Shown here: positions 1,505-27,356 of the stretch, one piece after another | How positions within the stretch are numbered: position 1 is the first letter of the stretch | Layout of the letters: every line of letters begins with the position of its first letter | Assembly (NCBI GenBank): GCA_965221125.1 | Contig: CBDCRW010000007.1 | Coordinates: 256,001 to 320,000 of the forward strand | DNA length: 64,000 nt | Source of the DNA: Alphaproteobacteria bacterium | GTDB taxonomy: Bacteria; Pseudomonadota; Alphaproteobacteria; UBA828 | Direction of reading: 5' to 3' | Program-made: the position numbers and the translations under genes | Notes under the pieces: model-generated | Seen by the model: only the letters and a program-made list of their open reading frames with translations | Database searches by the model: none | What the model was told of the DNA's origin: nothing

Positions 1505-2884
<1,380 letters not shown>

Positions 2885-7178: not shown

Positions 7179-7227
7179 TCTCTGCGTCCCGGCGCCATGT
7201 CACGCGCGCAAGCGCCCAATGGTGCGC

Positions 7228-8571: not shown

Positions 8572-8675
8572 CGCCGTCTCCTCGTCGCTCCGCCCTCTAG
8601 CCCAAGCATACAGCGGGGTCCCGGATGTTGCGCTGTTCCTTGGCAAGCCCTGCGGGCAGGGCTATAAGCCGGGGC

Positions 8676-10395: not shown

Positions 10396-11303
10396 GGCGT
10401 TTCTTCCTCCGGCGGGGTGGGGCGTTTGCGGCCGATCAGGGTCGCGATGACGGGATGGTAGCGCGCGCCCAGCCCGCTCGCGATGGCTTCGGCGAACAGC
10501 GCCTTGACCAGCGCGGCGCCCTCGGCGTCGATGCCTGATTCTTCAGCGATATCGAGCGCGTAGTCGAGATCCTTCATGGCGTAGGTGAGGGGGAAGGCGC
10601 CTTCGGGGAAGTGTTCCGGGAGGATCGCCTTCTTGCCGTGGTTCTGCAGCGCGAAGCTGTCGCCCGAGCTGCGGCCCACCGCCTCCAGGAAGGTCTCGGG
10701 CAGGATCCCCTGGCGGCGCGCGATGGCGAGGCCCTCGGCAAGCGCGCGGACGTTCTGAAAGAGGATCATGTTGTTGAGGATCTTCACCGCCTGTCCGCTG
10801 CCGACCGGCCCGCAGTGGGTCACGTCCTGGGCGATGTGGGCGAGCAGGGGGCGCAGCCGCGCGACCAGCGCCGCGTCGCCGCCCACCATGATGCTGAGCG
10901 TGCCGTCGATGGCGGCCTGGCGCGTGCGCGCGATCGGCGCATCGGCGAAGGCGATGCCGCGCGCGGCGAAGGCGCCCGCGATCTCGCGGGCGAGCGCCGG
11001 CGGGGCGGTGCTGGTGTCGACCACGGTGCGCCCAGGGGACACGTGCTCGATCAGCCCGCCGTCGCCGAGGCAGACCGCCCGCACCTCGCGGCCCGAGGGG
11101 AGCGAGAGGAAGATCAGATCGGCCGTCTGGGCGAGCGCCGCGACGGAGGGTGCAATTTCTGCGCCGTCCTCCGCGAGGCGGGCCAGCGGCGCGGGGTCGA
11201 GGTCGTAGGCCGCGACCGGCCCGTCGTGCTTGCGCGCGAGGTTGCGGCACATGGGCTCGCCCATGACGCCCGTGCCGATGAAGCCGATGCGCTCGGCCGT
11301 CAT
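10392..11303 (-). CDS. 3-hydroxyisobutyrate/tartronate semialdehyde dehydrogenase family
   Basis: GFIGTGVMG, DAPI, LSIMVGG, GSGQAVKILNN. Confidence 0.88.
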   Translation of the reverse strand: MTAERIGFIGTGVMGEPMCRNLARKHDGPVAAYDLDPAPLARLAEDGAEIAPSVAALAQTADLIFLSLPSGREVRAVCLGDGGLIEHVSPGRTVVDTSTAPPALAREIAGAFAARGIAFADAPIARTRQAAIDGTLSIMVGGDAALVARLRPLLAHIAQDVTHCGPVGSGQAVKILNNMILFQNVRALAEGLAIARRQGILPETFLEAVGRSSGDSFALQNHGKKAILPEHFPEGAFPLTYAMKDLDYALDIAEESGIDAEGAALVKALFAEAIASGLGARYHPVIATLIGRKRPTPPEEETP

Positions 11304-12814
11304 CGGTCGCGGCCCTCACGAGCGAACAGGGCGGCGCCGGCGCCGGCGAGGCGGCCGAAGACCGCGCCAGAGACCAGGCCCGTGCCGCCCGGATAGTTGC
11401 CGTAGAAGAGCCCGCCCACCAGCTCGCCCGCGGCGAAGAGGCCGGGGATCGGCGCGCCCGAGACCGCCTGCACCCGCGCCTCCGGGTCGATGGCGAGCCC
11501 GCCGAAGGTAAACGTAATCCCGCAGGTGACGGCATAGGCCTCGAAGGGCGGCGTCTCGATCCGGTTGGCCCAGTTGGATTTTTGGGGGGCGATGCCGCGC
11601 GTGCCGCGGCCGTCCTTCACCGTCGGGTCGAAGGGCACCTGCGTCATCACGGCGTCGTTGTAGGCCCGCACGGTCTCGAGGAAACGCGCGCCGTCGATGC
11701 CCTCCATCCGCGCGGCGAGACCCTCCAGCGTGTCCGCCTTCGCCCTGGTCACCTGGCGGATGCGGTACTCGTCCCGCAGCAGGTGCGTCACCTGCGAGTC
11801 GAACACCTGCCACGCGACCTGTCCGGGCTGCTCCAGCACCCGGCGGCCGTAGGCGGCGTAGGTGTAGTTCCGAAAATCCGCGCCCTCGTCGACGAAGCGC
11901 TCGCCCGCCGCGTTGACGACGATCGCGAAGGGGTAGCTGTGCTTCTGGAAGCCGTCGCCCACGGAAAGGTCGCCGAAGGCGGGCGCGTTCCGGTCCCAGG
12001 CTACTGCGTGGCAGCCGGACCAGTGGCCGGCTGGCATCGCGCCGGCTTCCAGCGCCATGCGGATGCCGTCGCCCTGGTTGAAGCGGGTGCCGCGCACCTT
12101 GGCGAGGTCCCAGCCCGGCCCGAGATAGCGCGCGCGCCACGCGGCGTTGGCCTCGAAGCCGCCGCAGGCGAGCACCACCGCGGGCGCCCGGACTTCGACC
12201 GTGCGCCCCTCGATTCGCGCGCGGACGCCACGCACGCCGGCGTCGTCGGTAACGAGCGAGAGGGCCTGCGCCCGGTAGTGGACGGCGACACCCGCTTCCG
12301 CCGCGGCCTTGTAGAGCGCGGCGACGAGGCCGGGCCCCCCGCCCCAGGCCTCGACCGCAAGCCCGCCCCAGAAGCGGAAGCGGCCGTCCTCTCGCTTGAA
12401 AGCCTGGCGGCCGTAGCTCGGCTGCAGGCGCACGCCCTTCTCGCGCAGCCACAGCAGGGTCGGGTGGCTGCGCGTCACAAGCTGCTCGACCAGGTCCGGC
12501 TCGGCGCGGTACTGGGTGAGCCGCGCCATGTCGTCGTAGTAGTCGGCCTCGGTGTAGGCGCCGAAGTCGGTCTCCGCCAGCTCGCGGTCGGAGAGGTCGG
12601 GCATCAGCGCACGCAGCGCTTCCGCCCCGTCGAAGACCACCCGCATGGCGCCGGCGGTGTACGTGCTGTTGCCGCCGCGCTCCTCCTCCGGCGCGGCTTC
12701 GAGCAGAGCCACGCGGGCGCCGCCCTCGGCCGCGGCGAGCGCTGCCGTGAGCGCGGCGTTGCCGCCGCCCACGACCGCGACATCGGCCGCCAGCGTCTCG
12801 CCCATTCCATTCAT
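11300..12814 (-). CDS. tcuA: FAD-dependent tricarballylate dehydrogenase-like oxidoreductase
   Basis: VVGGGNAAL, GGNSTYTAGA, CGGFEAN, RFVDEG, GITFTFGGL, NYPGGTGL. Confidence 0.8.
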   Translation of the reverse strand: MNGMGETLAADVAVVGGGNAALTAALAAAEGGARVALLEAAPEEERGGNSTYTAGAMRVVFDGAEALRALMPDLSDRELAETDFGAYTEADYYDDMARLTQYRAEPDLVEQLVTRSHPTLLWLREKGVRLQPSYGRQAFKREDGRFRFWGGLAVEAWGGGPGLVAALYKAAAEAGVAVHYRAQALSLVTDDAGVRGVRARIEGRTVEVRAPAVVLACGGFEANAAWRARYLGPGWDLAKVRGTRFNQGDGIRMALEAGAMPAGHWSGCHAVAWDRNAPAFGDLSVGDGFQKHSYPFAIVVNAAGERFVDEGADFRNYTYAAYGRRVLEQPGQVAWQVFDSQVTHLLRDEYRIRQVTRAKADTLEGLAARMEGIDGARFLETVRAYNDAVMTQVPFDPTVKDGRGTRGIAPQKSNWANRIETPPFEAYAVTCGITFTFGGLAIDPEARVQAVSGAPIPGLFAAGELVGGLFYGNYPGGTGLVSGAVFGRLAGAGAALFAREGRDR

Positions 12815-12890
12815 GCGGCAGGGTTCATGTCGGGATCATCCCGGTTGACGGCGGTCGACGCTGGCGCCATTTGTGTTGTATCGTGTCAAC

Positions 12891-13142
12891 ATGCCTCGGG
12901 CCAAGCATCCGAAGCAGGAGGTCGAGAGTGCCCTACGCGATGCCGAACGTGCCGGTTGGACCGTAACGCCGACTCGCGCCGGGCATCGCTGGGGCGTGGC
13001 GACATGCGGCGTGGCGGGTCCGTCCGCTTGTCAGATATCAATCTGGTCCACGCCCCGCAACACCGGCAACCACGCCAGGCAGTTGCGGCGATTCATCGCG
13101 CGCTGCCCGCATACGGGGGCCGAGCGATCGGGAGACGGCTGA
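12891..13142 (+). CDS. Small HicA-like putative toxin
   Basis: 83 aa, GHRWG and SIWSTPRN...HAR motifs; upstream of an HTH gene. Confidence 0.55.
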   Translation: MPRAKHPKQEVESALRDAERAGWTVTPTRAGHRWGVATCGVAGPSACQISIWSTPRNTGNHARQLRRFIARCPHTGAERSGDG

Positions 13143-13143
13143 C

Positions 13144-13704
13144 ATGTCCACGTTTCACTTCACGCTGATCGTCGAGGGACCGGACCTTCAGGATGCGGCG
13201 TGCATCGACGCGCTGTTCGAGGCCGGGTGCGACGACGCGGCCATCGGCCGGAGCGACGGAGTCCAGTTCGTCGACTTCGACCGGGAGGCAGGCACGCTCG
13301 ACCGGGCCATCCTGTCGGCAGTGGACGACCTGGAGACGCTGGCAGGCGTCGAGGTCGTGCGCATCGCCGACGCCGGTCTTGCGTCTCTGGCGGATATCGC
13401 CGCCCGCCTCGGCCGCACACGGGAGAGCGTTCGATTGCTGGTGAGCGGTGCGCGCGGCCCCGGCGGGTTTCCCAAGCCGGTCACCGACCCGCGCGGCCGC
13501 TATCGGCTGTGGCGCTGGTCCGACGTGGAGCGCTGGTGCGTGGAAGAGCTGGGCGAGGCGCTGCCGATTTCGCAGGACGACGTCACGGCGGCCATCAGCG
13601 CCGCGCTGGAACTCCGCCATTTTCGCCGTGCAAAGGCGCCCGCAAGCCCGGTCACGCTGCGGGAGCTAGTCGGCATCGAGGAGCAGCGGGCGTCTTCGGA
13701 ATAG
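13144..13704 (+). CDS. DNA-binding protein, putative antitoxin
   Basis: LFEAGCDDA...DFDREA N-domain plus HTH LADIAARLGRTRESVRLL...FPKP. Confidence 0.65.
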   Translation: MSTFHFTLIVEGPDLQDAACIDALFEAGCDDAAIGRSDGVQFVDFDREAGTLDRAILSAVDDLETLAGVEVVRIADAGLASLADIAARLGRTRESVRLLVSGARGPGGFPKPVTDPRGRYRLWRWSDVERWCVEELGEALPISQDDVTAAISAALELRHFRRAKAPASPVTLRELVGIEEQRASSE

Positions 13705-13779
13705 GGGCGCCGAGCGCGGCGTGAGCCTTCCGCGAAGGGCCGGTGTACTATCCCGCCAGCCATGCACGGGAGGGACCGA

Positions 13780-13835
13780 ATGAGCGCAGCCGCAGCCGAG
13801 GGAAATCAGTCCGCGTCCGAGCTTCGCCTAGTGTG
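13780..13835 (+). pseudogene. Displaced 5' end of the flavin oxidoreductase gene
   Basis: GGGAGG RBS, ATG, MSAAAAEGNQSASELRLV joins in frame to RLVWEPLEIG at 52091. Confidence 0.75.
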
Positions 13836-14123
13836 CACTATTATTGACGGTCAGTAGGCGAAAACACTGTGACGTAAGGGTCGCTTGTTCCTCCTGTATC
13901 GGGATTACGCTACAATGGGTTAGGATCGATGTCAAGGACAGATGAAGCGGGGTTGGAGAACACATGGGCTGATCCTGTGTCTCTGGGGAGTTGCACGAGG
14001 GGAACCGGGTTGTGGTGTTTGCTGTGGAGCACTGGTATGGTTCTGATGATGGACATGGACCTCTCTGCGAGGACACAATGGCGGCATATATTATCGGGCG
14101 CGAGGAACGCCATAGGAATATAT

Positions 14124-14168
14124 TGACATATTCCAGTATGTCACGGAGCTGCGTGTCTCTGTGGTTTC
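14124..14168 (+). other. Candidate oriT
   Basis: TGACATA-N6-TATGTCA inverted repeat then GCTGCGTGTCTCTGTGGT, resembling MOBF nic sites; upstream of RHH genes. Confidence 0.4.
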
Positions 14169-14193
14169 GGGGCCCTACGGACGGCTGCCCGCG

Positions 14194-14556
14194 ATGAGGG
14201 AGGATGCCGGCGGACGCCGCCAGCGCGCGGTCATGGCCACCGATGCGGAGTGGGAGCGGATCGGCCGGGCGGCTGCGGCGAGCGGCATGGACCTGTCGCG
14301 CTTCGTGATCCATCGCGCTCTTGATCGGGAGCCTCTGCCGCCGGAGGTCCTGCGCCGGGCGGTGCGCGAGATGCTGGTGCTGTCCAGACTGGAGGAAAGG
14401 CGGCTGCGCGGGGCGGGCGCCGGTGCGGCCTGGGAGGACGCCTGCGACGCGGTGGACGAATGGATCGACCGCGAGGGCATGCTCGACCGGCTCACCGATC
14501 CAGGTGCTGCGAACCGCTGGAAGGCGGCGGGGTCGACCGGGGAGGACCGATCGTGA
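14194..14556 (+). CDS. Ribbon-helix-helix (MobC/TrwA-like) protein 1
   Basis: RAVMATDAEWERIGRAAAASGMDLSRFV. Confidence 0.65.
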   Translation: MREDAGGRRQRAVMATDAEWERIGRAAAASGMDLSRFVIHRALDREPLPPEVLRRAVREMLVLSRLEERRLRGAGAGAAWEDACDAVDEWIDREGMLDRLTDPGAANRWKAAGSTGEDRS

Positions 14557-14864
14557 CTGAGGAGCCTGCGCGGCCCCTAAGACGTCAGCGGAGCCTGCAC
14601 TGCAAGCCGGCTGAACAGGCGATGATCCGGGAGCGCGCTGAGGCGGCGGACAAGACCGTGTCGCGCTATATTCTGGAGCTCGCGCTCGCCGACGATCCGG
14701 ACCGCCATCCCCTGGTGCTGACGGAAGCGGAACAGGTGGAGCAGAGGGACGGGGTACGGGAGTTGCAGGCATTCGTAAGGGCTCTGCGGCGCGAGCTTCC
14801 GGGGGGCAGCGGGCTCAGCCTGCTGAGCGCGATCTCCGTCCTTGCGCGGGAGCGTTCGTCGTGA
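14553..14864 (+). CDS. Ribbon-helix-helix protein 2
   Basis: RSLHCKPAEQAMIRERAEAADKTVSRYI; GGAGG RBS; GTGA overlap. Confidence 0.65.
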   Translation: MTEEPARPLRRQRSLHCKPAEQAMIRERAEAADKTVSRYILELALADDPDRHPLVLTEAEQVEQRDGVRELQAFVRALRRELPGGSGLSLLSAISVLARERSS

Positions 14865-15433
14865 GACGGACGCGGCGTCGGCGGAAGGCGCGCCGGCCGA
14901 GCCGGCACATCTCGATCTCGGCGACGGACGCGGATTGGGAGGTGGTTCGCAGCAACGCGGAGCGGCGCGGCCTGTCGATCGCGCGCTACCTGCTGGAGCT
15001 GGTGGAACGGGACAGTGAGGAAGAGGACGCAGGTCCCGAACTGGCGCTTGCCAAGGAAGAGCAGCGTGAGCAGCTGGAGGCGCTGCAGGAGGTCCGCGCG
15101 CTGATGCTGGAGGCGGAGGCGGAGGATGCAGGTCCGCTTGTACGCGATATGCAGGAGCGGATCGCGGTGATGTTCGCAGCCTGGGCGTCTGCGATGGCCG
15201 GGTCGGGCCGCTCGGAGGAGCTGCGGCTGGCGCTCGCCTCGGTGCTTGGCGAGGAGCGGGCGCGTATCGCTGCGGCCTCGGTCGTACCAACCTCGGTCGT
15301 ACCAACCTCGGTTGTGCCGGCCTCGGCCGCGGTCTCGACCGCGGTCTCGACCGAGGCGCCGGCCGCGCAGCAGGAGGTCGCGCCTCAGGCCCCTGACGGG
15401 GAGACGGACCCCGGCCAGGACCGCCTGCTGTGA
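14861..15433 (+). CDS. Ribbon-helix-helix protein 3
   Basis: ISISATDADWEVVRSNAERRGLSIARYL; GTGA overlap. Confidence 0.65.
   Translation: MRRTRRRRKARRPSRHISISATDADWEVVRSNAERRGLSIARYLLELVERDSEEEDAGPELALAKEEQREQLEALQEVRALMLEAEAEDAGPLVRDMQERIAVMFAAWASAMAGSGRSEELRLALASVLGEERARIAAASVVPTSVVPTSVVPASAAVSTAVSTEAPAAQQEVAPQAPDGETDPGQDRLL
15276..15353 (+). repeat. In-frame tandem repeats (15-bp CCTCGGTCGTACCAA and 12-bp GCGGTCTCGACC)
   Basis: Encodes SVVPT-SVVPT-SVVPA and AVST-AVST. Confidence 0.8.
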
Positions 15434-15641: not shown

Positions 15642-16037
15642 ACACGAGGGGACAATTGGCGTGACTGCTGTTGTTTTCCGGTCTAGCCGGATAGAAGCAC
15701 GGGTTTTTTTCTCACTTTGATTGGTTGGTGGATTTCCCGGGATGGTGGCCGAGTGCGGGAAGGACGCTGCCTGCGGCATTTTTTTGATCCTCAGCAGAAT
15801 CCTCATTGCTGTTGAAGCTGTGGAGCGGTGGGCGCGAGATCGGCGAGTGTGGTCAGGCGGTGGGCAAGCGCCAGCTTGTCCACGGGCTGTCCACACGGTC
15901 CGCAGGACGCCGATCGGTCCGCAGGACGCGTCCACGGCTCCACAGCTTGGCGGCGGCGGGGAGCGTCCGTAATCTTGGCCTCTCACTGAACGACAAAGAG
16001 AGGCCCGGGGGACGGAACTCCCGCCGGGCCAGGGCCG

Positions 16038-16673
16038 GTGCAGCTTCGCTACGAAACGGGGCTCACCAGCGAGGAATACGTTAAGACCGAGGCGTGGCGC
16101 GACGCAAGGCTTGAGCGCTGCCCGAATCACCCGCACGGCGGATGTTCTGTGGCAAGCCACGGCACCTACGAGCGGAAGACCCCGCCCGGCGCAAGGGTTC
16201 CTCGCTGGTATTGCCGTGAGAGCCATACGACCATCGGCCTGCTGGCCGACTGTCTGGCGGCGCGGCTGCCGGGCACGCTCGATGCGCTGGAAGCGGTTGT
16301 TGTCGTGGCGGAGGAGGCCGGCAGCCTGGAGGAGGCAGCGGACGAGGTGCGCTGCCCCGAGGACGAGGACGCCATCGAGCTTCCCGGCGCCGTGCGTTGG
16401 ATCCGCCGCAGGCTGAAGCTTGTGCACGACGCGCTTGTGCGCGTCATCGGCCTGATCCCCGACCTGCTCGCGGGCTGCGCGCCCACCATGAGCGCGGTGC
16501 GCGAGCGTCTGAAGAGCGACAGCGCGTTGATGGAACTGCGCGGCCTGGTCGCCGGGCAGCTCCGGACGCTACCCGCGCCTCTGGGCTTCCAACCCCACGG
16601 CATCGACGTGGGGAATCGCAAACCGCAGTTCCAACAACGGGCGGGGCCGGACCCGCCGCCGGAGAGTTCGTAG
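16038..16673 (+). CDS. Transposon accessory protein (Zn-ribbon + HTH, DUF6431-like)
   Basis: CPNH...HGTYERK...RWYC...TIGLL..CLA; directly upstream of transposase. Confidence 0.65.
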   Translation: MQLRYETGLTSEEYVKTEAWRDARLERCPNHPHGGCSVASHGTYERKTPPGARVPRWYCRESHTTIGLLADCLAARLPGTLDALEAVVVVAEEAGSLEEAADEVRCPEDEDAIELPGAVRWIRRRLKLVHDALVRVIGLIPDLLAGCAPTMSAVRERLKSDSALMELRGLVAGQLRTLPAPLGFQPHGIDVGNRKPQFQQRAGPDPPPESS

Positions 16674-16718
16674 CGTGACGATCCCGGGGCCAGGGAGTCC
16701 CTGAACGAGGATCGCACC

Positions 16719-18047
16719 ATGAACAGCTCAGACGACGACCTTCGCCAACAGATCGCGCTCTTCCGATACGACGTCATCGCCGATCTGGTGCATCTGCCCG
16801 TGGGTGCACCGGGTGCCGGCGCGATGATGCGCGCCAAAGCCGAGAAGACCTACACGATCCCCGGAACCACCAGGACCCGGGTCGCCGCCGAGACCATGCG
16901 GCGCTGGATCAAGGACTACCGCTACGGCGGCTTCGACGCGCTCTACCCCAAGCCCCGCACCGACCGGGGGAAGCCCCGGCGGCTGCCGCCCGAGGTCGCC
17001 GAGCGCCTCATCGCGCTGAAGACCGAGAACGACGCATTGTCGGTTCGCGCCATCATCCAGAAGGTCAAGGAGGAGGGTATCGACCACCCGCTCGCCTCGT
17101 CCACCGTGCACCGCCTCTTCAGCCGCGAGGGCCTGTTCGACAAGAAGCCGCCCGACGGGGCGGATCGCCGCCGCTTCGCCTTCCGGCATGCCGGCGAGAT
17201 GTGGATGAGCGACGTCATGCACGGACCCAAGGTCCGGCACGGCCGAACCCGGCGCAAGACCTACCTGATCGCCTTCATCGACGACGCCACCCGCGTCATC
17301 CCGTTCGCCGCCTTCGCCATGGCGGAGAACACTGCGGCGTTCCTGCCGGTGTTCAAGGACGCGCTGATCCGGCGCGGCCTCCCGGCCCGCTTGTACGTCG
17401 ACAACGGAAGCGCCTACCGCTCCCGTCATCTCTCCCTGGTCTGCGCCAGGCTCGGCGTTGCGTTGATTCACGCAAGGGCGTTCCAGCCAGCGGGAAAGGG
17501 TAAGATCGAGCGCTTCTTCCGCACCCTCCGGGCCGGCTGGCTCCGCCACCTCGGCGATGACGTCGACAGCCTGGAGGCGCTCAACCGCAGCCTCTGGGCC
17601 TGGATCGAGGGGGAGTATCACAACAGCCCGCATCGTGGCCTCGACGAGGGGCGCACCCCGCTTGAGCAGTGGGCGCTGGCCTCGGCCGGCGTGCGCTATC
17701 CCGACGCCACCATGGACCTCGACGATCTGTTCCTCTTCGAGGCCAGGCGCCGTGTCTACAAGGACCGCACCGTTAGTCTGAACGGCCGCGTCTACGAGGT
17801 CGACGCCCTCCTGGTGGGTCAGAACGTCATCCTGCGCTACGACCCGGCCGCGCCGCCCTCGCGCCCTCTCGACGTGGTCCATGACGGCAAGCCGGCCGGC
17901 AAGGCCAGCCCTCTCGACGCCTACGCCAATACCGCCGTCAGGCGCACCTACCCGGCCAGGGAGATCGAGGCCGAAGATCCGGCGCCCGAGCCTCCGCCCT
18001 CGCCGCTGGCCATGCGCAACCTCAAGGACAAGAAGGAGGACGAGTGA
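16719..18047 (+). CDS. DDE transposase (rve core, Mu-transposase C-terminal domain)
   Basis: WMSDVMHG, AFIDDATR, LYVDNGSAY, KGKIERFF, RRVYKDRTVSLNG. Confidence 0.9.
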   Translation: MNSSDDDLRQQIALFRYDVIADLVHLPVGAPGAGAMMRAKAEKTYTIPGTTRTRVAAETMRRWIKDYRYGGFDALYPKPRTDRGKPRRLPPEVAERLIALKTENDALSVRAIIQKVKEEGIDHPLASSTVHRLFSREGLFDKKPPDGADRRRFAFRHAGEMWMSDVMHGPKVRHGRTRRKTYLIAFIDDATRVIPFAAFAMAENTAAFLPVFKDALIRRGLPARLYVDNGSAYRSRHLSLVCARLGVALIHARAFQPAGKGKIERFFRTLRAGWLRHLGDDVDSLEALNRSLWAWIEGEYHNSPHRGLDEGRTPLEQWALASAGVRYPDATMDLDDLFLFEARRRVYKDRTVSLNGRVYEVDALLVGQNVILRYDPAAPPSRPLDVVHDGKPAGKASPLDAYANTAVRRTYPAREIEAEDPAPEPPPSPLAMRNLKDKKEDE

Positions 18048-18847
18048 TGTACCTGCGCCACTTCGCCTTCACCCGCCTGCCCTTCGAGACCCCGGCAGAG
18101 ACCGACGAGCTGTTCGAGTCCAACGCGCGCCGCGAGGCCGAGGCCAGGCTCGGCCACCTCATCGACCTGCGCGGCATCGGCCTGCTCACCGGCGAGGTGG
18201 GCTCCGGCAAGACCACCGTGTGCCGGCATCTGACCGCGCAGCTTCATCCAGGCCTCTACCGGGTCCACTACGTCTCGCTGACCACGGGCAACGTGCTCGA
18301 CATGTACAAGGCGATCGCGTGGGAGATCGGCCTGCCCATCGAGCGCTCCCGCGCCTCGGCCTATCAGGCCATCCGAAACGAGATCTCCCGCCTCGTCACC
18401 GAGGCCAAGCAGCTGCCGGTCCTCGTCATCGACGAGGCCCATCATCTGCGCAACGACGTCCTTGAGGACCTGCGCCTGCTCACCAACTTCGCCATGGATG
18501 CAGAGCAGCGCCTGTGCCTCGTCCTCGTCGGTCTGACCGAGCTCAGGCGCCGCCTGGCCATGGCCATGCACGAATCCCTCAGCCAGCGCCTCGTCGTCCG
18601 CCACCACCTGAGCGGTCTCGACCGCGACGAGGTCGACGCTTACATCAAGCACCGCCTCAGGCTCGCGGGATGCGAACTGCCGCTGTTCGAAGAGCCCGCC
18701 GTCGAGGCCCTGTTCCAGGGCGCGCGCGGCCTGCCGCGCCAGATCAACCGCATCGCCCACTACGCGCTCTCCGCCGCCGCTCTCGACGAGGCGAGGACCG
18801 TCAGTGCCGACCACCTGCAGCACGCGCTCGAGGAACTGCGGCCATGA
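18044..18847 (+). CDS. ExeA/MuB/TnsC-like AAA+ ATPase
   Basis: GEVGSGKTT, VIDEAHHL, LVLVG, GLPRQIN. Confidence 0.88.
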   Translation: MMYLRHFAFTRLPFETPAETDELFESNARREAEARLGHLIDLRGIGLLTGEVGSGKTTVCRHLTAQLHPGLYRVHYVSLTTGNVLDMYKAIAWEIGLPIERSRASAYQAIRNEISRLVTEAKQLPVLVIDEAHHLRNDVLEDLRLLTNFAMDAEQRLCLVLVGLTELRRRLAMAMHESLSQRLVVRHHLSGLDRDEVDAYIKHRLRLAGCELPLFEEPAVEALFQGARGLPRQINRIAHYALSAAALDEARTVSADHLQHALEELRP

Positions 18848-19884
18848 CCGGCTTCCCGACCCGCGCCCCGATCGAGCTGGAGGAGCGGCCGCGCGAGCAG
18901 CAATGGCTGGTGGACACGCTATGGGGCGAGCAGGCCGTCGGCATCGTCGGCGGCGAGCCGAAGTGCGGCAAGTCCATCCTGGCGCTGGACCTCGCGGTCG
19001 CAGTCGCCGCCGGCGTCCCATGCCTGCGGCACTTCGCCCCGGCCCGGCCTGGCCCGGTCCTGCTGTTCGCCGCAGAAGACGCCGGCCACCTCGTGCGCAA
19101 GCGCCTGCAGGGGATCGCCCGCGCCGCAGGCGCCCGCTTCGAGACCCTCGACATCGCCGTCATCGACGTGCCCACACTGCGCCTCGACCATCTCGACGAC
19201 CGCCGCCGCCTGCAGCAGACCGTGGAGCGCATCGCACCGCGCCTCGTGGTCCTCGACCCCCTGGTCCGCCTGCACGGCGTGGACGAGAACACGGTTGCGG
19301 ACGTCGCCCCGATCCTCGGCTTCCTGCGCGACCTGCAACGCCGCTTCGAGACCGCCGTCCTCCTCGTCCACCACGCCCGCAAGAGCGGGGCCACGAGGCC
19401 GGGGCAGGCCCTGCGGGGCAGCAGTGAGCTGCACGCCTGGGGGGACTCGAACCTCTACCTGCGCCGCCGGGACCGGCAGACCCTCATGACCGTCGAGCAT
19501 CGCGCCGCACGCGGTCTCGACGACATCGAGATCGAGCTCAAGGAAGACGGAGAGGAGCCCTCCTTCCGGCTGCGCCAGCCGCCCACGGCCGGCGGCGGGG
19601 CGCCTCAGCCCGAAACACCCGAATGCCGCGTTCTCAAGGCGCTCGCCGACGCCGGGGCGCCGCTCTCGCAACGCCAGATCCGGGAACGCGCCGCGACCCG
19701 GCACAAGACCGTCGGCGTAATCTTGCAAAAGCTCGTCCAGGAGGGTCGCGTCGCGCGCAACGCCGAGGGCGGCTACAGCGTCGTCGCAGGCGCAGCGGAC
19801 AAGCGGGCGGCGGCCGCCGCCGCCAACGGCAGCAGTCGGCCGCAGGCCCCGCGGTTCCCGGAGCCCGGTTCCGCCAACGCCTAG
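18844..19884 (+). CDS. RecA-fold AAA_25 / RepA-like helicase with C-terminal wHTH
   Basis: GGEPKCGKS, AAED, VVLDPL, LVHHARK, LRGSSELHAW; ATGA overlap. Confidence 0.8.
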   Translation: MTGFPTRAPIELEERPREQQWLVDTLWGEQAVGIVGGEPKCGKSILALDLAVAVAAGVPCLRHFAPARPGPVLLFAAEDAGHLVRKRLQGIARAAGARFETLDIAVIDVPTLRLDHLDDRRRLQQTVERIAPRLVVLDPLVRLHGVDENTVADVAPILGFLRDLQRRFETAVLLVHHARKSGATRPGQALRGSSELHAWGDSNLYLRRRDRQTLMTVEHRAARGLDDIEIELKEDGEEPSFRLRQPPTAGGGAPQPETPECRVLKALADAGAPLSQRQIRERAATRHKTVGVILQKLVQEGRVARNAEGGYSVVAGAADKRAAAAAANGSSRPQAPRFPEPGSANA

Positions 19885-20232
19885 GGGTTCGAGCCGGAAC
19901 CGCCGTCGGGAACCACCCTTCCCCAACGGTCCGGAAGGCGCTGCGCCTCCACCGGGATACTACGTCAGGTGAGCGGCCAGTCCGTGGCCGGAAGCTTGCT
20001 TCAGGCCATGGCAGCACTTCGTCGTGTGGACGGTGGCGAGTCACCCGAAGGGCCGAAGCGAAGCGCAGGAGCGGCGCAGCCGCTTGACGCGCCGACGGCC
20101 GCGCGACACCTCGTCAGCTCTCCTCAAGCACCAGTCCAAACCTCAATCAGACAGCGACCCCGGACCGCCCGCAGAGACCATGAGCTCCTACGCTTCGATC
20201 CGGAAAAGACCGAGCAATCTGGGAAATCAGGG

Positions 20233-21685
20233 GGTTGTGTCCCCAGACGTGGTGTAGGAGCTCCCGCTACCCCCGGTAGCTGTGGGTAACCGGCTTGGCG
20301 CCGCGACCGCCCTCGAGTCTGGTGGCGCCAAGCCGGTTATCCACAGCGGGGTGGCCATCGCGGTTCCGGTTTAGGGTTTGGGTGAATCCGAATCGACCCG
20401 AGCCTAAGGAGAACCACGATGACCGATGACAAGCTTACCCTGCGGACGCTGTTGGAGAAGAGCTCTGACGCCGATCTGCTGCGTGAGATGATCGCCTTCT
20501 CTGCGCAGCGCCTTATGGAGCTGGAAGTCGAGGGCCTGACCGGCGCCGAGCATGGCGCGCGGACGCCGGAGCGGATCAACCAGCGCAACGGCTACCGCGA
20601 TCGGCCTTGGGAGACCCGGGCCGGCACGGTCGACCTGAAGATTCCGAAGCTCAGGAAGGGGAGCTACTTCCCCGGCTTCCTGGAGCCCCGACGGACGGCG
20701 GAGAAGGCGCTCACGGCGGTGATCCAGGAGGCCTACATCCAGGGGGTATCGACCCGCTCGGTCGACGAACTGGTTCAGGCCATGGGCATGAGCGGGATAT
20801 CGAAGAGCCAGGTCTCGCGCCTTTGCGGGGAGATAGACGACAAGATCCGCAGCTTCCTCGACCGCCCGCTCGAAGGCGACTGGCCCTATCTCTGGCTGGA
20901 TGCGACTTACGTGAAGGTGCGCGAGGCCGGGCGCATCGTCCCGGTCGCGGTCACCGTGGCCGTCGCGGTCAACGACCAGGGCCGGCGCGAGATCCTCGGC
21001 ATGGCGATCGGCGCCTCCGAGGCCGAGACCTTCTGGACCGAGTTCCTGCGCTCGCTGACCAGGCGCGGCCTGCGCGGCGTGCAGCTGGTGATCTCCGACG
21101 ACCACAAGGGCCTGAAGGCCGCCACCACCCGGATCCTCGGCGCCACCTGGCAGAGATGCCGCGTCCACTTCATGCGCAACCTGCTGGCCCATGCCGGCAA
21201 GCAGGGCCGGCGCGTCGTCTCCGCCTTCGTCGCCACCGCCTTCGCCCAGGACGATGCCGAGGCCGCTGCCGCCCAGTGGCGCCTGATCGCCGACCAGCTC
21301 AGGCCCAAGGCCTCCAAGCTGGCGGCCCTCATGGACGAGGCCCAGCACGACGTCCTCGCCTACATGAGCTTCCCCAAGGAGCACCGGGTCAAGCTTCACT
21401 CGACCAACCCGCTCGAACGCGTCAACGGCGAGATCAAGCGACGCACCAACGTCGTCGGCATCTTCCCCAACGAGGACGCCATCACCCGCCTCGTCGGCGC
21501 CGTGCTGCTCGAGCAGAACGACGAATGGACCGTCGGAAGGAGGTACATGACGCTGGAATCGATCGCTCCCCTGAGCGACAATCCCACGATCAAGCTGTCC
21601 GCTGTGGCAGCCTGAATAACCCGGCCCTACCCGCCGGATGCCGCGTAAAGCGCGACGCTCTTACACCACTCCTCGGGACACGATC
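20233..21685 (+). mobile_element. IS256 family element
   Basis: TIRs GGTTGTGTCCCCAGACGTGGTGTA / TACACCACTCCTCGGGACACGATC; 8-bp TSD AATCAGGG (20225-32, 21686-93). Confidence 0.93.
20419..21615 (+). CDS. IS256 (Mutator) transposase
   Basis: [47 protein letters not shown]. Confidence 0.95.
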
Positions 21686-21737
21686 AATCAGGGCAGCGAT
21701 CACGTCAAATAATCTGGGAGATTCGGCGTCAAATAAC

Positions 21738-22409
21738 GTGCGAAACAACACTGCAGAGGGCGACGGCAAGAGCGGGCGGACGGGCCAGCCGGACTTGCTG
21801 GCAAGCCTGCCGCCGGAAGGGCCACCCGCTTCGCCACCAGCGCCCGGTATCGATCCTGCCGTGGTCGAGGAATTGCTCACCGAAGTGCGAGAACTGCGGG
21901 AACAGGTGGCCGGACTGAAGGAAGCGGTAGCCGCCGCGCGGCCCGCGCCAGGGCCTGAGGCGGTACCTGAGGTGCTGACGCAGGAGGCTCTCGAGGCCTG
22001 GGGCGACAACTTCTTGGCCCGCGTGGCCGAGATCGCGCGAGCCGAGGCCGCGCCAAGGGGCGACGCGGCGGCGACCGTCGCAGCCCATGCCGCCAAGATC
22101 GAGGAAGCGGCGGCGAAGGCGGCAGCGGCGGCAGACCGTGTCGACCGGGGTATGGCGACTACCGCGGACCGGGTCGCGGCCGAGATCGAGGGGGCCGTGA
22201 CCAGAATCGAAAAGGGCCTTGCGGCGACGCGCTCCCAGGTCATCGAGCATTCCGGTTCGATCCGTGGGCTTCTCTATGACGTCCTCACGCAAACGGCTGG
22301 ACCGAAGTTCGGCCTGAAGACGCTTCTTGTGGGCCTGATCGTCCTGATCTTCGGCATGCTGATCGAGAGCCGCGCGCACTTGCTCTACAAATGGCTGTGG
22401 TCCGGTTGA
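21738..22409 (+). CDS. Coiled-coil protein with C-terminal TM helix upstream of relaxase (start uncertain)
   Basis: Open frame with Ala-rich coiled coil and LLVGLIVLIFGMLI tail. Confidence 0.55.
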   Translation: MRNNTAEGDGKSGRTGQPDLLASLPPEGPPASPPAPGIDPAVVEELLTEVRELREQVAGLKEAVAAARPAPGPEAVPEVLTQEALEAWGDNFLARVAEIARAEAAPRGDAAATVAAHAAKIEEAAAKAAAAADRVDRGMATTADRVAAEIEGAVTRIEKGLAATRSQVIEHSGSIRGLLYDVLTQTAGPKFGLKTLLVGLIVLIFGMLIESRAHLLYKWLWSG

Positions 22410-22496
22410 GCCGGCGGCGTCCCGCCTCTCCGCTCCGGCGTCCCGTCTCCCTGCGTCCGCCGCGCACCGACGCGCCCATGCGTGGGGCCTGAGCCG

Positions 22497-25400
22497 ATGG
22501 TCGCCACGGTGGTGGAGCTCCGCTCGTCCGCCATGGCGGTGACCTATTACGAGCGCGACGGCTACTACGCAAAGAACGACCCCGAGCACCGCCAGGCGAG
22601 CTTCTGGTACGGGGACGCGGCGAAGGCGCTGGGGCTCAAGGCCCATGTGCGTCCCTCGCGCTTCGAATCGGTGCTGTCGGGATACGTGCCGGGGACGGAC
22701 CTGCGTCTCGGCCGGATGCGCGAGGGGGAGCACGATCACCGGCCCGGCTGGGACATCACCCTGTCGGCTCCGAAGTCGGTATCGCTGGAGGCGCTGGTGA
22801 TGGGAGACCGCCGGGTGATCCGGGCTCACGACGAGGCGGTGCGCGCGACGCTGGCGTTCGTGGAGGCGGAGCTTCTTCAGACCCGGGGCTGGGACCCCGC
22901 GACCAGGCGCCGTCCCCGGGTGCAGGCGGAGGGCATGGTGGTGGCGGGGTTCCGTCATCTCGCGAGCCGCGACCAGGACCCGCAGCTGCACACTCACTGC
23001 GTGCTGGCCAACATGACGCGGAATGCCTCAGGCGAGTGGCGGAGCGTGGAGCCGACGAAGATCCGCCGCAGCGAGAAGCTGATCGGAGCATTTTACCGGA
23101 ACGAGCTCGCGCTGCGTCTCCAGGCTTTGGGTATGGCCGTCTCGCCGACCCTGGTGGGACGGGTGCCGGGGTTCGAGCTCGCGGGCTACGACCGCGCCTT
23201 CCTGGACGCGTTCTCGGGCAGGCGCCGCGAGATTCTCGCGTACCTGGAACGCCAGGACCTGTCCTATACGGCGAAGCACACGCAGATGGCGGCGCTGCAC
23301 ACGCGCCGGCGCAAGGAGGACAAGGGCCTTGCGGACCTGGTGCCGGAATGGCGCGCGCGGGCGCGGGCGCTGGGTCTGGTCCGGGAGAAGACGGCCCTCA
23401 GGCCGCCCCGCCCGCTCGACCCGGTGACCGGCGAGCGGGTGGGGTTGCCGCACGTGCCCCCACCCGACCTGCCGGCCAACGAGATCCGCAGCCTGAAGCG
23501 TGCGCCGGCGCTGCCGAAGCTGCCGGAGCAGCCCAGCAATGACATTGCCGAACGCGCGGGCACGCGTCCCGAGCCCTCCCGCTCACCGGCGCCGGCGGAG
23601 CTGTCGCAGGAGCCCGAGCGGGGCGTCCTGGAGGCGGTGGCGCGGGCTGTGGCGCACGTTGCTGAGAGGCGCACCGCGATCCCGGAGGCCGAGATCCGGG
23701 CGGTGGCGCTGGGCCATGCGCCGGGGCGCTACACCCTGGCCGAGGTCGACGGGGCGATCGCACGGCTGGTGTCCGGCGGCGAGCTGATCGAGGCGGAACG
23801 CCGGGGCATGGACCGGGCCTTCGTCACCGACCGGGCGGTGAAGGCCGAACGCCAGGTGCTGGCGTCGATGCGGGCGGGGCGCTCACGGGGAATGGCGCTG
23901 GCCGGCGCGGATGCCGTCGAGGTGCGGCTCGACGCGTCGCGTCTCACCAAGGGCCAGAGGGAGGCGGTCCGCACGGTGCTGCTGTCGAACGATCTCACGG
24001 TCGGCGTGCAGGGCCACGCCGGGAGCGGCAAGACCACCATGCTGAGGGAGGTGAAGGCGCTTCTCGGGGACAGGACGATACAGGGCCTTGCGCCCTCTGC
24101 CGCCGCCGCACGGGTTCTCGCCAGGGAGGCGGACATCCCCTCACGGACGCTGCAGCACTTCCTGACCCGCTTCAACGATCTCTCGGACCCGGCGCGGCTG
24201 GCGCGGGGCCGGGAGGAGTACGGGGGCGCGGTGCTGGCGGTGGACGAGGCCTCGATGATCGACACCGTGCGCATGGAGGCGCTGCTGCGCATCGCGCGCG
24301 ATCTGAATGTGGCGCGTGTCGCGCTGGTGGGCGACACGGCGCAGCTGAGGGGGGTGGATGCTGGAGAACCCTTCCGTCTGCTGCAGAAGGCGGGCATGGC
24401 GACGGCGACCATGGACGAGGTGCTGCGCCAGCGCGACCCGGCGCTGCGCGCGACGGTAGGCCGCGTCAGGGAGGGGGAGCCGGGCGCGGCGATCGCGGCG
24501 CTGGGCAACCGGGTGCGCGAAGTGCGGCGCGAGGAGCTCGGCATCGAGGCGGCGCGGCGCTGGCTCGCGCTGGCGCCTGTGCAGCGGGCGGACACCCTGA
24601 TCCTCGCGCCGACGCACGCCATTCGCCGGCAGGCGAACGAGGCGGCGCGCGAAGGGCTCGCGGAGGAAGGGGTCTTGCGGGGCCGCACGCTCGCCGTCGA
24701 CCGCCTGGTAAATCGGCGGCTCACCCGCGCGCTGGCCTCCGACATACGGAGCTACGAGCCCGGCGACACTATAGTGTTCCACCGCGACGTCTTCGGCTGC
24801 CGCGTCAACGACGTCTGCACCGTGATGGGCCACGACGGCGGCAGGGTCGTACTGGCGCATGCGGACGGCGAGCGCCGGTTCCGGCCCTCGGGCAATGCGG
24901 CGCGCTATCTGGGCCTCTACGACACCGAGCGGATCGAGCTGCGCGCCGGCGACCAAATCCGCTGGACGCGCAACCGCAAGGCCCCGCCCGCCCGCGGCAG
25001 GCATCCCCAGGCACCGGACCTGGTCAATGGCGGCGAGGCGAAGATCGTGGAGATCGGCTATGAGCGGGTGCGCTTCCGCGAGGGCGGCCGGGAGTTCGGC
25101 CTCTCGCTTACCGACCCACAGCTGCGCCATCTCGATCATGCGTACTGCTCCACCGTGCATTCTGCGCAGGGCCGGACGGCGCGGGCGGCGATCGCGGTGC
25201 TGGACGCGGGCGGCTGGGTCGACCGCGAGCTGTTCCATGTCGAGCTCAGCCGGGTCTCGGAAGAGTTCCTGCTGCTGACCGACGACCGCGACGCGCTCAT
25301 CGAGAGCATGGCATACGACCGGAGCGAGGACGGTGCGCTGGAGGCGCTGGGGATCGACCTTTCCGAGCCCCCCGTGGTGGACCCCGAAGAGTTCACGGCG

Positions 25401-27356
25401 CTGGCGGCGGACTGGCGGGCACTTCTGCGGAAGAGCGAGGAGACGAACACGATTCCATTTTTCCTGTCGGGCTACCGGGACACGATGGCCCAGGCTGCGG
25501 CGCTCGCGCAGATCGAGGATCTGCCGGAGGACATGCGCCGCCTCACCGACACCATGCTGGCGAAACACGAGGAGCATCTTGCGCATGACCGGGAAGTGCA
25601 GGGCCTCGTCGAGGGCATCCGGGACCATTGGCGGCGCTGGCCGGAGTTGGGCTGGGCGGCCTCCGCGCAGGGCGTGCCTGTAGAGAAACTTCCCGCACAC
25701 GCTGCCTGGCGCGAGGAAGGGGCGGCGCTCCTGGAGGCGGGCCGCAGCCTGGTGGAGGCGGAGGGCGGGGCGGCCCACCGCGTGGCGGCACACCATGAGG
25801 TGGTACACCGCCAGGTGGTACACCGCCAGGTGGTACACCGCGATGTGGCCCACCACCTCCATGCCATGCCGGGCGGGCGCGCCGGTCTGGAAGACGCCGT
25901 CGTTATGCTTGAACGCACGCGGCTCCTCGACGATGCCGGGCGCTTCGAACGCGCGTGGCACGCGCTTCGCGAGCGAGCGACGGAGAGCGTCGTCCCGGAG
26001 ATTTACGCGCCGGGCTACCGGCAGGTGGCGGCGCTTGGCCAAAAGCTCGTGCTCGCCGATCAGGGGCTCGATGAGCGCGCGCAGCGCGCGGTGGCGGAAT
26101 GGCGGGAGATCGGTACGGCGCAGAGGGCGCTGGCGGAAGAGGTGCGCGCCCTGCCCGGCCGTATCGCGGCGTGGCTGTCAGCGGACCTGCCGCAGGACGA
26201 GCCCGGCGGGCTCGATCCTGACCATCCCGTGCGGCAGTCCTGGCGCGGGGAAGGCGCCAGGATGCAAGCCATGGCCGGGGACATGCTGCGCCCCGAAGAC
26301 GCCCACGCGCCCTACCTGGACGCCGAACCGGGCGGGCGCGAGGCTGTCCGGCAGGCGGCCGAAGAGGTCGCCGACGCGCTCCGGCACGACGGCTACCGGG
26401 CATTCGGGTGGCTGACGAAGGAGGTGAACCGGCAGGCGCAAGAAACCCGGACCGAAGCGTTCCACGTGCCGCGCTACGGCGAGCTGGTCGCACAGGCCGA
26501 GGCGCTCTCCGTGCAGGCGGCGCTGCCGGCGCGCACGCAGGAGGTCGTCGCATCATGGCTCGGCTACCATGCCAGGTGCGAACCGCTCTGCCGGCAGATC
26601 CGGGAATGGCCCGCACTGCTGGACGCGCTCACGGCGGACTGCCCCGAACGTCCCGCGAGGCTCGACGCCCTGACTGACTGGCGGCAGCGGGCGGAGCCCC
26701 TGCTCGCCGAGGCCCGAACGATGATGGCGGAGGACGCCCCTCACGCGCCCCATCTGGACGCCATTCCGGGCGAGCGCAAGGCGCTGGCCGAGGGAACGGG
26801 CCGCCTCGACCGCGCGCTGATCGAGGTCGAGGCGCGGGAGACGGTCGTGCTGTCATCGGTCGTACAGAAGTGGGCTAACGAGACGGGCGGGATCGGCTTC
26901 GACAGCCGCGCCTATGACGCGCTGATGGAGCGCGCGCGTTCTCTCGATGCCAGGCCGCATCTGCCGGAGGATTTGCGCGGCACGGTCGACGGCCTTCTCG
27001 CCAGGGACGAACGCTGGGCGCTCGACAGGGATCGGGTCCAAGCATTCCTCGTGCGGGCCGCGGAGTTCGAGCGCGCGCGGAACGCTCTGACGCAGATGGA
27101 CGTCACGACCAACTCGTTCGAGGAGCGTCGACAGGCCCGGCAGGACTGCGAGCGGAAAGAGAAGGAGGTTCTCGACGAAGCGGTGGCAATCAGGAAGAAC
27201 ATGCCGCAACACGAGCTCGCCGCTCATCTGGCCGCCGCCGGCGCAGGCTCGGACACGGTCCGTGAGCGCGAAGAGGAGATCCGCAACAGGATCGCCCGGG
27301 AACAGGAAAGGCAGGCCGCCCTGCGAATGAGCCGCGACCGGGGAATGTCGATGTAG
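22497..27356 (+). CDS. trwC: MOBF/TrwC-type conjugative relaxase-helicase
   Basis: YYERDGYY, DITLSAPKSVS, HLASRDQDPQLHTH, GHAGSGKTT, DEASM, HAYCSTVHSAQGRT. Confidence 0.9.
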   Translation: MVATVVELRSSAMAVTYYERDGYYAKNDPEHRQASFWYGDAAKALGLKAHVRPSRFESVLSGYVPGTDLRLGRMREGEHDHRPGWDITLSAPKSVSLEALVMGDRRVIRAHDEAVRATLAFVEAELLQTRGWDPATRRRPRVQAEGMVVAGFRHLASRDQDPQLHTHCVLANMTRNASGEWRSVEPTKIRRSEKLIGAFYRNELALRLQALGMAVSPTLVGRVPGFELAGYDRAFLDAFSGRRREILAYLERQDLSYTAKHTQMAALHTRRRKEDKGLADLVPEWRARARALGLVREKTALRPPRPLDPVTGERVGLPHVPPPDLPANEIRSLKRAPALPKLPEQPSNDIAERAGTRPEPSRSPAPAELSQEPERGVLEAVARAVAHVAERRTAIPEAEIRAVALGHAPGRYTLAEVDGAIARLVSGGELIEAERRGMDRAFVTDRAVKAERQVLASMRAGRSRGMALAGADAVEVRLDASRLTKGQREAVRTVLLSNDLTVGVQGHAGSGKTTMLREVKALLGDRTIQGLAPSAAAARVLAREADIPSRTLQHFLTRFNDLSDPARLARGREEYGGAVLAVDEASMIDTVRMEALLRIARDLNVARVALVGDTAQLRGVDAGEPFRLLQKAGMATATMDEVLRQRDPALRATVGRVREGEPGAAIAALGNRVREVRREELGIEAARRWLALAPVQRADTLILAPTHAIRRQANEAAREGLAEEGVLRGRTLAVDRLVNRRLTRALASDIRSYEPGDTIVFHRDVFGCRVNDVCTVMGHDGGRVVLAHADGERRFRPSGNAARYLGLYDTERIELRAGDQIRWTRNRKAPPARGRHPQAPDLVNGGEAKIVEIGYERVRFREGGREFGLSLTDPQLRHLDHAYCSTVHSAQGRTARAAIAVLDAGGWVDRELFHVELSRVSEEFLLLTDDRDALIESMAYDRSEDGALEALGIDLSEPPVVDPEEFTALAADWRALLRKSEETNTIPFFLSGYRDTMAQAAALAQIEDLPEDMRRLTDTMLAKHEEHLAHDREVQGLVEGIRDHWRRWPELGWAASAQGVPVEKLPAHAAWREEGAALLEAGRSLVEAEGGAAHRVAAHHEVVHRQVVHRQVVHRDVAHHLHAMPGGRAGLEDAVVMLERTRLLDDAGRFERAWHALRERATESVVPEIYAPGYRQVAALGQKLVLADQGLDERAQRAVAEWREIGTAQRALAEEVRALPGRIAAWLSADLPQDEPGGLDPDHPVRQSWRGEGARMQAMAGDMLRPEDAHAPYLDAEPGGREAVRQAAEEVADALRHDGYRAFGWLTKEVNRQAQETRTEAFHVPRYGELVAQAEALSVQAALPARTQEVVASWLGYHARCEPLCRQIREWPALLDALTADCPERPARLDALTDWRQRAEPLLAEARTMMAEDAPHAPHLDAIPGERKALAEGTGRLDRALIEVEARETVVLSSVVQKWANETGGIGFDSRAYDALMERARSLDARPHLPEDLRGTVDGLLARDERWALDRDRVQAFLVRAAEFERARNALTQMDVTTNSFEERRQARQDCERKEKEVLDEAVAIRKNMPQHELAAHLAAAGAGSDTVREREEEIRNRIAREQERQAALRMSRDRGMSM
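25798..25842 (+). repeat. 3x 15-bp tandem repeat AGGTGGTACACCGCC in relaxase
   Basis: Encodes VVHRQ-VVHRQ-VVHRD. Confidence 0.85.

Follow-up and report, generated by a model that had tools for sequence, protein, structure and literature searches.

A Tn6049-type transposon with a predicted RepA-like ATPase gene in its fourth slot

Why would a Mu-like transposon that already encodes a transposase and an AAA+ partner carry a gene for a second, helicase-type ATPase? The question is raised by an element in a 64,000-nucleotide stretch of an alphaproteobacterial genome (GTDB lineage UBA828; GenBank assembly GCA_965221125.1, contig CBDCRW010000007.1, positions 256,001 to 320,000), referred to below in its entirety as the window. 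The element has four genes, g1 to g4 (Table 1), the last of which encodes an AAA_25 protein. An initial annotation of the window had described a four-gene Mu-like transposon and proposed that g4 serves replication or target selection. Comparison of copies within the host genome demonstrates that the unit is a real, recently active four-gene transposon. The best explanation of the data as a whole, which we hold to be right by a modest balance, is that of an active, autonomous transposon of the Tn6049 type, the fourth slot of which, the position directly behind the AAA+ gene, couples Mu-type transposition to replication.

The host assembly comprises 4.58 Mb in 7 contigs, and the ends of the element were set by comparing copies and their flanks. 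Twenty copies are present, 100% identical over the sequence they share and together making up about 2% of the genome; the uninterrupted ones have a length of 4,621 bp. All 20 begin at the same base, from which the flanks diverge outward, and the tips read TGTTGTTT at the start and AAACAACA at the finish, giving TG...CA termini with a terminal inverted repeat of only 8 bp. A perfect 5-bp target duplication surrounds 15 of the 20 copies, whereas two, the window copy among them, have a duplication of 4 bp and one has a 5-bp duplication with a single mismatch. Two copies in inverted orientation on contig C4 (671960-676580, minus strand, and 716887-721507, plus strand) hold each other's 5-bp flanks across 40 kb, indicating that the segment between them has been inverted. 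The ends given in the initial annotation need to be corrected in the light of these comparisons. The left end had been placed at 15672, 3 bp off the true start at 15669, and the right end had been placed incorrectly at 20216: the window copy is interrupted at 20233 by a nested insertion sequence (IS) of the IS256 family, 57 bp before its own right end, which lies at 21750. The imperfect inverted ends described originally apparently correspond, by our reconstruction, to a TTTTCCGG match that lies 6 bp and 83 bp from the tips. In addition, the right arm contains the same GATTTCCC word as the left arm, at 62 bp from the right tip.

All four genes are located on the plus strand, and the gene coordinates bear out the originally proposed operon in which the last three genes overlap at their stop and start codons, by 4 bases each (GTGA for g2/g3, ATGA for g3/g4). 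In g2 the rve and Mu-transpos_C domains score 41.9 and 31.6 bits, respectively, and the catalytic triad D165, D228 and E264 (DD(35)E) is intact and kept in 59 of 59 relatives. The best NCBIfam model for g2 is IS481, with 201.9 bits against a cut-off of 224, and the IS21 model reaches 43.1 bits against a cut-off of 160; the closest solved relative by sequence is TnsB (7svw, expectation value E 5e-7). The g3 product matches AAA_22 with E 6e-27 and an ExeA-like PEP-CTERM ATPase model with 169 bits, below the cut-off of that model, while its similarities to TniB (20.8 bits, cut-off 22.4) and to MuB as closest solved relative (8xvb, E 1e-3) are weak, and Pfam gives no IstB_IS21 match for it. These Pfam and NCBIfam searches agree with what had been read from the sequence originally, namely a DDE transposase with a Mu C-terminal domain, an ExeA/MuB-like ATPase (its likeness to MuB being weak) and an AAA_25 protein, and the description as a Mu-like (Mu/Tn552-like) DDE transposon with an AAA+ partner stands. 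Equally, as had been claimed, the Pfam domain search assigns no member of the four to the TnsA, TniQ or resolvase families, and no TniR resolvase or TniQ gene is found within the 4,621 bp.

For g1, annotated originally as a zinc-ribbon/helix-turn-helix (HTH) protein, neither Pfam nor NCBIfam gives a match, even at E 10. Nevertheless, C28, C36, H41 and C59 are invariant in an alignment of 30 homologues, and hhalign comparison of the profile of these homologues with DUF6431 proteins, including Orf1 of Tn6049, gives a probability of 95.4% (E 1.9e-8), and on the strength of both the invariant columns and the profile match g1 is considered a zinc-ribbon protein. The AlphaFold2 (AF2) model of g1 has a predicted local distance difference test score (pLDDT) of 86, with no Foldseek match at E<=0.001; comparison with solved folds (VIA) yields a best Z of 4.5, with weak HTH-like matches and none to TniQ, and allows no fold assignment. 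By tblastn, g1, g2 and g3 are detected together until transposase identity falls to about 46%, and on plasmids relatives of g2 with about 39% identity show the order DUF6431 protein, DDE transposase and ATPase.

What kind of protein is encoded by g4? Its match to AAA_25 has an E of 9e-37, and the winged helix noted originally is recovered as a MarR-type domain of 24.8 bits, below the Pfam cut-off of 27. The closest solved relative by sequence is the hexameric helicase RepA of RSF1010 (1g8y, E 9.6e-10), and 25 sequences that are 48-92% identical to g4 all retain Walker A, Walker B and further motifs without change. The AF2 model, of moderate confidence (pLDDT 63.5), finds DnaB, KaiC and RadA as top folds with E values of 1e-9 to 1e-8. 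Thus, the protein has what is expected at the sequence level of a helicase of the RepA/DnaB type, a RecA-fold core, Walker A and B, downstream motifs and kinship to a solved helicase, and its originally proposed nature as a RepA-like, helicase-type ATPase is supported by sequence. In all 15 pairs among six elements the ratio of nonsynonymous to synonymous substitution rates (dN/dS) is 0.08-0.40, indicating that g4 is under purifying selection. Whether the gene belongs to the element at all had been singled out for checking in advance, and it lies inside the ends, as defined from the 20 filled sites, in all 20 copies; g4 is integral to the element and no stray neighbour. Relatives of g4 are numerous: at least 7,882 among 8,000 scored candidates have E<=0.001, the best 120 being 69-92% identical, and among AAA_25 proteins of g4 size clustered at 50% there are 478 representatives with E<=1e-30 and 6,654 with E<=1e-10. 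A fused AAA_22+AAA_25 protein (P0004) was considered as evidence for an interaction of g3 and g4 and rejected, as it has a frameshift-like junction near the g3 end and is a single sequence from a single contig; a long open reading frame (ORF) in locus L115 is probably an over-extended call of the same kind.

How constant is the fourth gene? In a scan with g2 using one genome per species, 447 relatives were confirmed; the 80 retained yield 79 loci, among which transposase identity ranges from 98% to 34%. The closest relatives are labelled as belonging to six phyla (Pseudomonadota, Acidobacteriota, Gemmatimonadota, Spirochaetota, Verrucomicrobiota and Myxococcota). The AAA_25 gene, taken originally as the standing fourth gene, follows g3 in only 8 of the 79 loci, found in six genomes (L014, L015, L017, L025, L027, L028, L073 and L056). 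Its lack in most homologous elements had been named beforehand as an outcome that would refute the original proposal, which as first worded is thus not supported. Counted by genome, the slot could be classified in 32 genomes, the remaining loci being too short, having no clear ORF or belonging to a distant Desulfobacterota clade with ORFs of about 45-60 residues that end in F. In 6 of the 32 the occupant is AAA_25, in 16 a small ORF of 68-90 residues, in nine a DUF3991 + Toprim_2 protein of 268-312 residues and in one a RepB_primase protein. By comparison of copies, the Toprim genes fall within elements of 4,215-4,339 bp, and the small-ORF elements, which are multi-copy in several genomes, measure 3,303-3,528 bp. 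The Toprim/DUF3991 proteins have no solved relative by sequence, while the RepB-primase protein (L090) resembles RepB' of RSF1010 (3h20/3h25, E 1e-12) and is encoded in an element of 3,817 bp that has TGTT...AACA as its ends, is bordered by a 5-bp duplication (CGGAG) and occurs with two left flanks that differ. The L090 gene has a paralogue of 70% DNA identity in the same genome (L217, G002:C62:38417-39216), which may be its source.

In a transposase tree of 59 sequences, made by a quick method with the Shimodaira-Hasegawa-like approximate likelihood ratio test (SH-aLRT) as sole branch support, five of six AAA_25 sequences form one starred clade nested among those with small ORFs, the sixth (L027) is found nearby on unstarred branches, the Toprim sequences are more basal, and all slot labels together need 13 changes. 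Moreover, locus L034 in a Spirochaetia genome contains two adjoining elements on opposite strands (6077-9604 and 10209-14294), one belonging to the lineage of the window element and carrying a small ORF, the other belonging to that of Tn6049 and carrying an AAA_25 gene. The latter shares 40% identity with Tn6049 in Orf1, 55% in the transposase and 60% in the ATPase, and its slot-4 AAA_25 protein is 45% identical to g4. Since its transposase is only 26% identical to g2, the pairing of AAA_25 with the slot is seen again in lineages that are deeply separated.

In L016, the nearest of the small-ORF relatives, similarity to the element is confined to positions 1-3179 (86% identity) and 4527-4621, and it is these two borders that define the swappable slot-4 module, which comprises besides g4 about 310 bp of non-coding DNA (Table 1). 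Two features of this DNA deserve attention. The first is a hairpin across the g4 stop codon, with four GGTTCC/GGAACC words in 62 bp, as compared to 0.37 per kb genome-wide, and a DNA folding energy of -18 kcal/mol. It is kept in relatives of the g4 type. The GGTTCC repeats also encode the conserved C-terminal residues RFP.PGS of g4, and it seems that the DNA-level site constrains the protein end. The second is a structured motif with an invariant core and a variable hairpin, for which 9 of 21 predicted pairs have compensatory changes in 35 sequences. Within the host genome this motif is confined to the 20 copies of the element, but in metagenomes it occurs in at least 120 stretches. Among 80 of these (L094-L173), 59 have enough upstream DNA and g4 is located upstream in four; other neighbours are IS66, rve, RecD2, terminase and housekeeping genes. 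As it is mostly found without g4, the motif is an independent, widespread structured element and no dedicated g4 site. A search of the element against Rfam returned only chance microRNA-like matches, and none for the motif in 10 further loci; the whole right arm folded as RNA is no better than shuffled sequences (z 0.37).

Such hairpin-rich DNA accompanying g4 brings to mind an origin of replication, and it could be imagined that the slot-4 module, a helicase or primase gene together with hairpin origin-like sites, turns an excised or circular form of the element into a short-lived replicon in the manner of IncQ plasmids. The similarity of g4 to RepA and of the L090 protein to RepB', two parts of the IncQ replication apparatus, would fit. 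However, of the three IncQ functions each element has only a single one, an initiator is missing, a tblastn search with g4 against 72,556 plasmid records gave no match, and all copies seen are integrated and have target duplications, making this a very improbable explanation.

More serious is the possibility that g4 is passenger cargo acquired from a plasmid or an integrative element and carried to its own advantage or that of the host, for example in interfering with replication, in defence or in regulation by way of its winged helix, without a role in transposition. Its small share of the related loci, the sharp boundaries of the slot-4 module, the large size of the family of AAA_25 proteins of g4 length and the occurrence of the structured motif next to unrelated genes are all compatible with cargo. 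On the other hand, g4 starts within the g3 stop, exactly where relatives hold their fourth gene, and all three of the larger slot occupants have replication-type domains (AAA_25, Toprim/DUF3991 and RepB primase). In addition, AAA_25 recurs in the slot of a lineage whose transposase is 26% identical, purifying selection acts on g4 and no further cargo is carried. We therefore regard the cargo explanation as unlikely.

The small ORFs in the same slot (for example those of L016, L018, L031, L040 and L058, and L093:5234-5506) share a helix of the W(T/S)PEQA type as well as an acidic tail. Among 15 of them, QL[SDAP]LF occurs in five, QxxLF in seven and an acidic ...[PD][FY] end in 13, compared to mean counts of 0.01-0.12 in shuffled versions. 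QLSLF is given as the full consensus beta-binding (beta-clamp) motif in the relevant part of one study (PMC4549789), and DDDIPF as the C-terminal motif of SSB, the protein that binds single-stranded DNA, in a passage of another (PMC5872125). Judged by these motifs, the tails resemble a beta-clamp motif (QLxLF) with an acidic ...PF end like that of SSB behind it.

How, then, might slot 4 contribute to transposition? We consider a link to replication most likely from the sequences of the slot occupants, and the following course of events is conceivable. The transposase g2 would cut the 3' ends only and join them to a staggered target, aided by g1 through DNA binding at the ends or through regulation, and by g3 through target capture and activation, as for MuB/TnsC. 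Because no second, TnsA-type nuclease is encoded, the branched Mu-type intermediate would have to be replicated or repaired. Replication of phage Mu after transposition relies on host restart proteins, and to our knowledge the hand-over of the branched product to replication is understood in detail for phage Mu only. Slot 4 would supply the replication link to this branched intermediate. In most relatives the small acidic protein would recruit host factors by its clamp-motif-like and SSB-tail-like end, and in other lineages a primase-type protein would provide the link. In the element of the window g4 would be loaded onto the fork-like ends, perhaps directed there by its own winged helix and the accompanying hairpin sites, and would give the host polymerase access by opening the element. 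As no resolvase is encoded, it would fall to host recombination to resolve cointegrates.

Several points weigh against such a coupling. KaiC and RadA have the AAA_25 fold as well, so that helicase function of g4 is not proven by the modelled fold. The AAA_25 gene is absent from most related elements, and as relatives with three genes plus a small ORF are multi-copy without it, g4 is dispensable for the family. The motif counts of the small ORFs are not independent, because these ORFs are homologous to each other and the motifs are short. Furthermore, the primase label of the Toprim/DUF3991 proteins derives from Pfam domains alone, the structured motif occurs without g4 in 55 of the 59 testable metagenome loci, and the 40-kb inversion fits recombination between copies and intramolecular replicative transposition equally well. 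Given the replication-type alternatives in the same slot, the absence of g4 from most relatives can at the same time be taken as support for the replication idea.

Alternatively, g4 could be a target selector or immunity factor, fulfilling a role like that of TnsE or TniQ by another fold and steering the element via its winged helix to DNA in replication or conjugation or to certain structures. Tn7 and Tn5053 carry dedicated selectors next to their ATPase, which speaks for this view. The selectors tnsD and tnsE are covered in the relevant section of Benler et al. (PMC8649781). The clamp-motif-like tails of the small ORFs in the same slot and the position of the window copy, with a weakly NikA/TraJ-like ORF on one side and a TrwC relaxase gene on the other, would also be in agreement with such a function. 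Yet, the 20 insertion sites have no sequence in common beyond a weak CCNGG-like preference in the 15 perfect duplications, the copies are oriented with the local GC skew in 11 cases and against it in nine (the skew itself being weak, this gives no signal), and the primases found in the same slot elsewhere fit replication better. As a whole this selector explanation appears improbable. Of the two roles offered for g4 by the initial annotation, replication has been strengthened by the nature of the slot occupants and by the recurrence in L034, and target selection has become the less likely one.

Returning to replication coupling, a wider proposal may be put forward, tentatively and with slightly more doubt than conviction: elements of the Tn6049 type could constitute a branch of the Mu/Tn7 superfamily that is large but has been overlooked, with a slot dedicated to replisome coupling in which a clamp/SSB mimic, a primase or a helicase are interchangeable. 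The present element would then be a DDE transposon that supplies the strand-transfer intermediate with a fork-opening enzyme of its own, and g4 could free replication from host restart. The variants of the slot (adaptor, primase and helicase) offer a natural series for dissecting the hand-over from transposition to replication, and a replication-link slot would, if true, explain bursts to 20 identical copies in very different bacteria. The family, a widespread one of small transposons, is currently annotated merely as 'DDE-type integrase' and 'AAA family ATPase', and its copies break assemblies into short repeat contigs.

Table 1. Features of the transposon copy in the window (positions are those of the window).
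Feature	Position	Strand	Remarks
Left target duplication	15665..15668	.	ctgc, 4 bp; flanks actgc/element/ctgca
Left terminal inverted repeat	15669..15676	+	TGTTGTTT; starts with TG; in 20/20 copies
Left non-coding arm	15669..16037	+	369 bp; GATTTCCC at 63 bp from the tip
g1	16038-16673	+	211 residues; DUF6431-like zinc-ribbon protein with helical, weakly HTH-like domain (profile comparison)
g2	16719-18047	+	442 residues; DDE transposase; HTH_32, rve and Mu-transpos_C, all above Pfam cut-offs
g3	18044-18847	+	267 residues; AAA_22 ATPase, ExeA/GspA-like, weakly MuB/TniB-like; start overlaps g2 stop
g4	18844-19884	+	346 residues; AAA_25 RecA-fold ATPase with C-terminal winged helix, RepA/DnaB-like; start overlaps g3 stop (ATGA)
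Swappable slot-4 module	18848..20194	+	g4 with about 310 bp non-coding DNA; sole part not common with L016
Hairpin of four GGTTCC/GGAACC words	19853-19914	+	across g4 stop; candidate protein-binding site
Structured motif	19990-20110 (core 20040-20100)	+	core GTCACCCGAAGGGCCGNAGCGNAGCG ... CTTGAC in variable closing stem; covariation
Nested IS256-family insertion	20233-21685	+	1,453 bp; transposase 20419-21615; foreign to the element
Final 57 bp of element	21694..21750	+	two TATTTGAC-type direct repeats (complementary strand) and terminal AAACAACA; ends with CA
Right target duplication	21751..21754	.	ctgc

The IS256-family element nested in the window copy is bordered by an 8-bp duplication (AATCAGGG at 20225-20232 and 21686-21693) and is present in 14 identical copies in the host genome. 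Three of the 14 sit in three different transposon copies (that of the window and those at C5:~758404 and C6:~196405), all of them close to transposon ends (element positions ~4541, ~4564 and 172-179), so that the transposon looks like a preferred target of this IS. Transposition of an already interrupted element was considered as the origin of the window and C5 copies and rejected: the two IS insertions lie 23 bp apart and therefore are independent. Outside the transposon the weakly NikA/TraJ-like ORF (14861-15433) and the TrwC-type relaxase/helicase gene (22482-27356, 1,624 residues) flank the window copy, which places this copy in a conjugative element's transfer region. A paralogue with 81% identity to the 267 bp on the left side of the element is found elsewhere in the host genome (C6:183859-184125).

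How does the element compare to known systems? Closest in architecture is Tn6049, given a length of 3.5 kb and 12 copies, each with a 'gspA' ATPase, in Cupriavidus metallidurans CH34 in the portion of PMC2864759 concerned with it; a passage of PMC4739549 mentions 12-bp imperfect inverted repeats starting with TGTG and 4-bp direct repeats, and according to an excerpt of PMC6210171 its transposition module 'could not be categorized'. On plasmid pHS87a of Pseudomonas aeruginosa Tn6049 encodes a 181-residue 'transposase', a 479-residue rve transposase, a 277-residue AAA ATPase and a 90-residue ORF. Common to both elements are the order on one strand of DUF6431 protein, rve transposase, AAA+ ATPase and a fourth ORF that overlaps the ATPase stop, TG-initial ends with short inverted repeats, duplications of 4-5 bp (taking the values for Tn6049 from the said passage of PMC4739549) and multiple copies in the host. 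Homology is distant, with 26% identity for the transposase (E 2e-24) and 28% for the ATPase (E 2e-14), and is seen for g1 by profile only. In contrast to the 3.5 kb and the 90-residue acidic fourth ORF of Tn6049, the element described here has 4,621 bp and an AAA_25 protein of 346 residues, and because of this larger size and the AAA_25 gene in slot 4 it is called a variant of the Tn6049 kind.

With Mu (MuA/MuB), Tn552 and the Tn7/Tn5053 modules the element shares a DDE transposase with Mu-transpos_C and an AAA+ partner encoded just downstream, TG...CA ends, a 5-bp duplication and, in TnsB and MuB, its closest solved relatives. Unlike these it is devoid of TnsA, TniQ/TnsD, TnsE and a resolvase and has a DUF6431-like gene upstream instead, and the replication-type gene of slot 4 has no counterpart in any of these modules. 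More specifically, it is separated from Tn7-like elements by the lack of a TnsA endonuclease and a TniQ/TnsD selector, from the Tn5053/Tn402 family by that of TniQ and the TniR resolvase, from the IS21 family by that of an IstA/IstB pair, and from the IS481 family by a score below the model cut-off and by having four genes as opposed to the single gene of such an IS.

The replication proteins lead to RSF1010 (IncQ), of which RepA is near to g4 and RepB' near to the L090 slot-4 protein. Whereas RepA and RepB' are plasmid replication proteins that work with the initiator RepC at an origin, each transposon has a single such protein inside a DDE element, and g4 has an extra C-terminal winged helix. 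In the literature, no description of helicase or primase variants of Tn6049-type transposons was found, the original description of Tn6049 and supplements lying outside the texts covered. The poorly characterised transposon class suggested by the initial annotation is not an unknown class, because the ancestral and commonest form is an element of about 3.4 kb of the Tn6049 kind; that this kind is unstudied remains true of the suggestion. Compared with what has been described, the family is one that is named but unstudied, and its helicase- and primase-type slot variants appear to be the new part.

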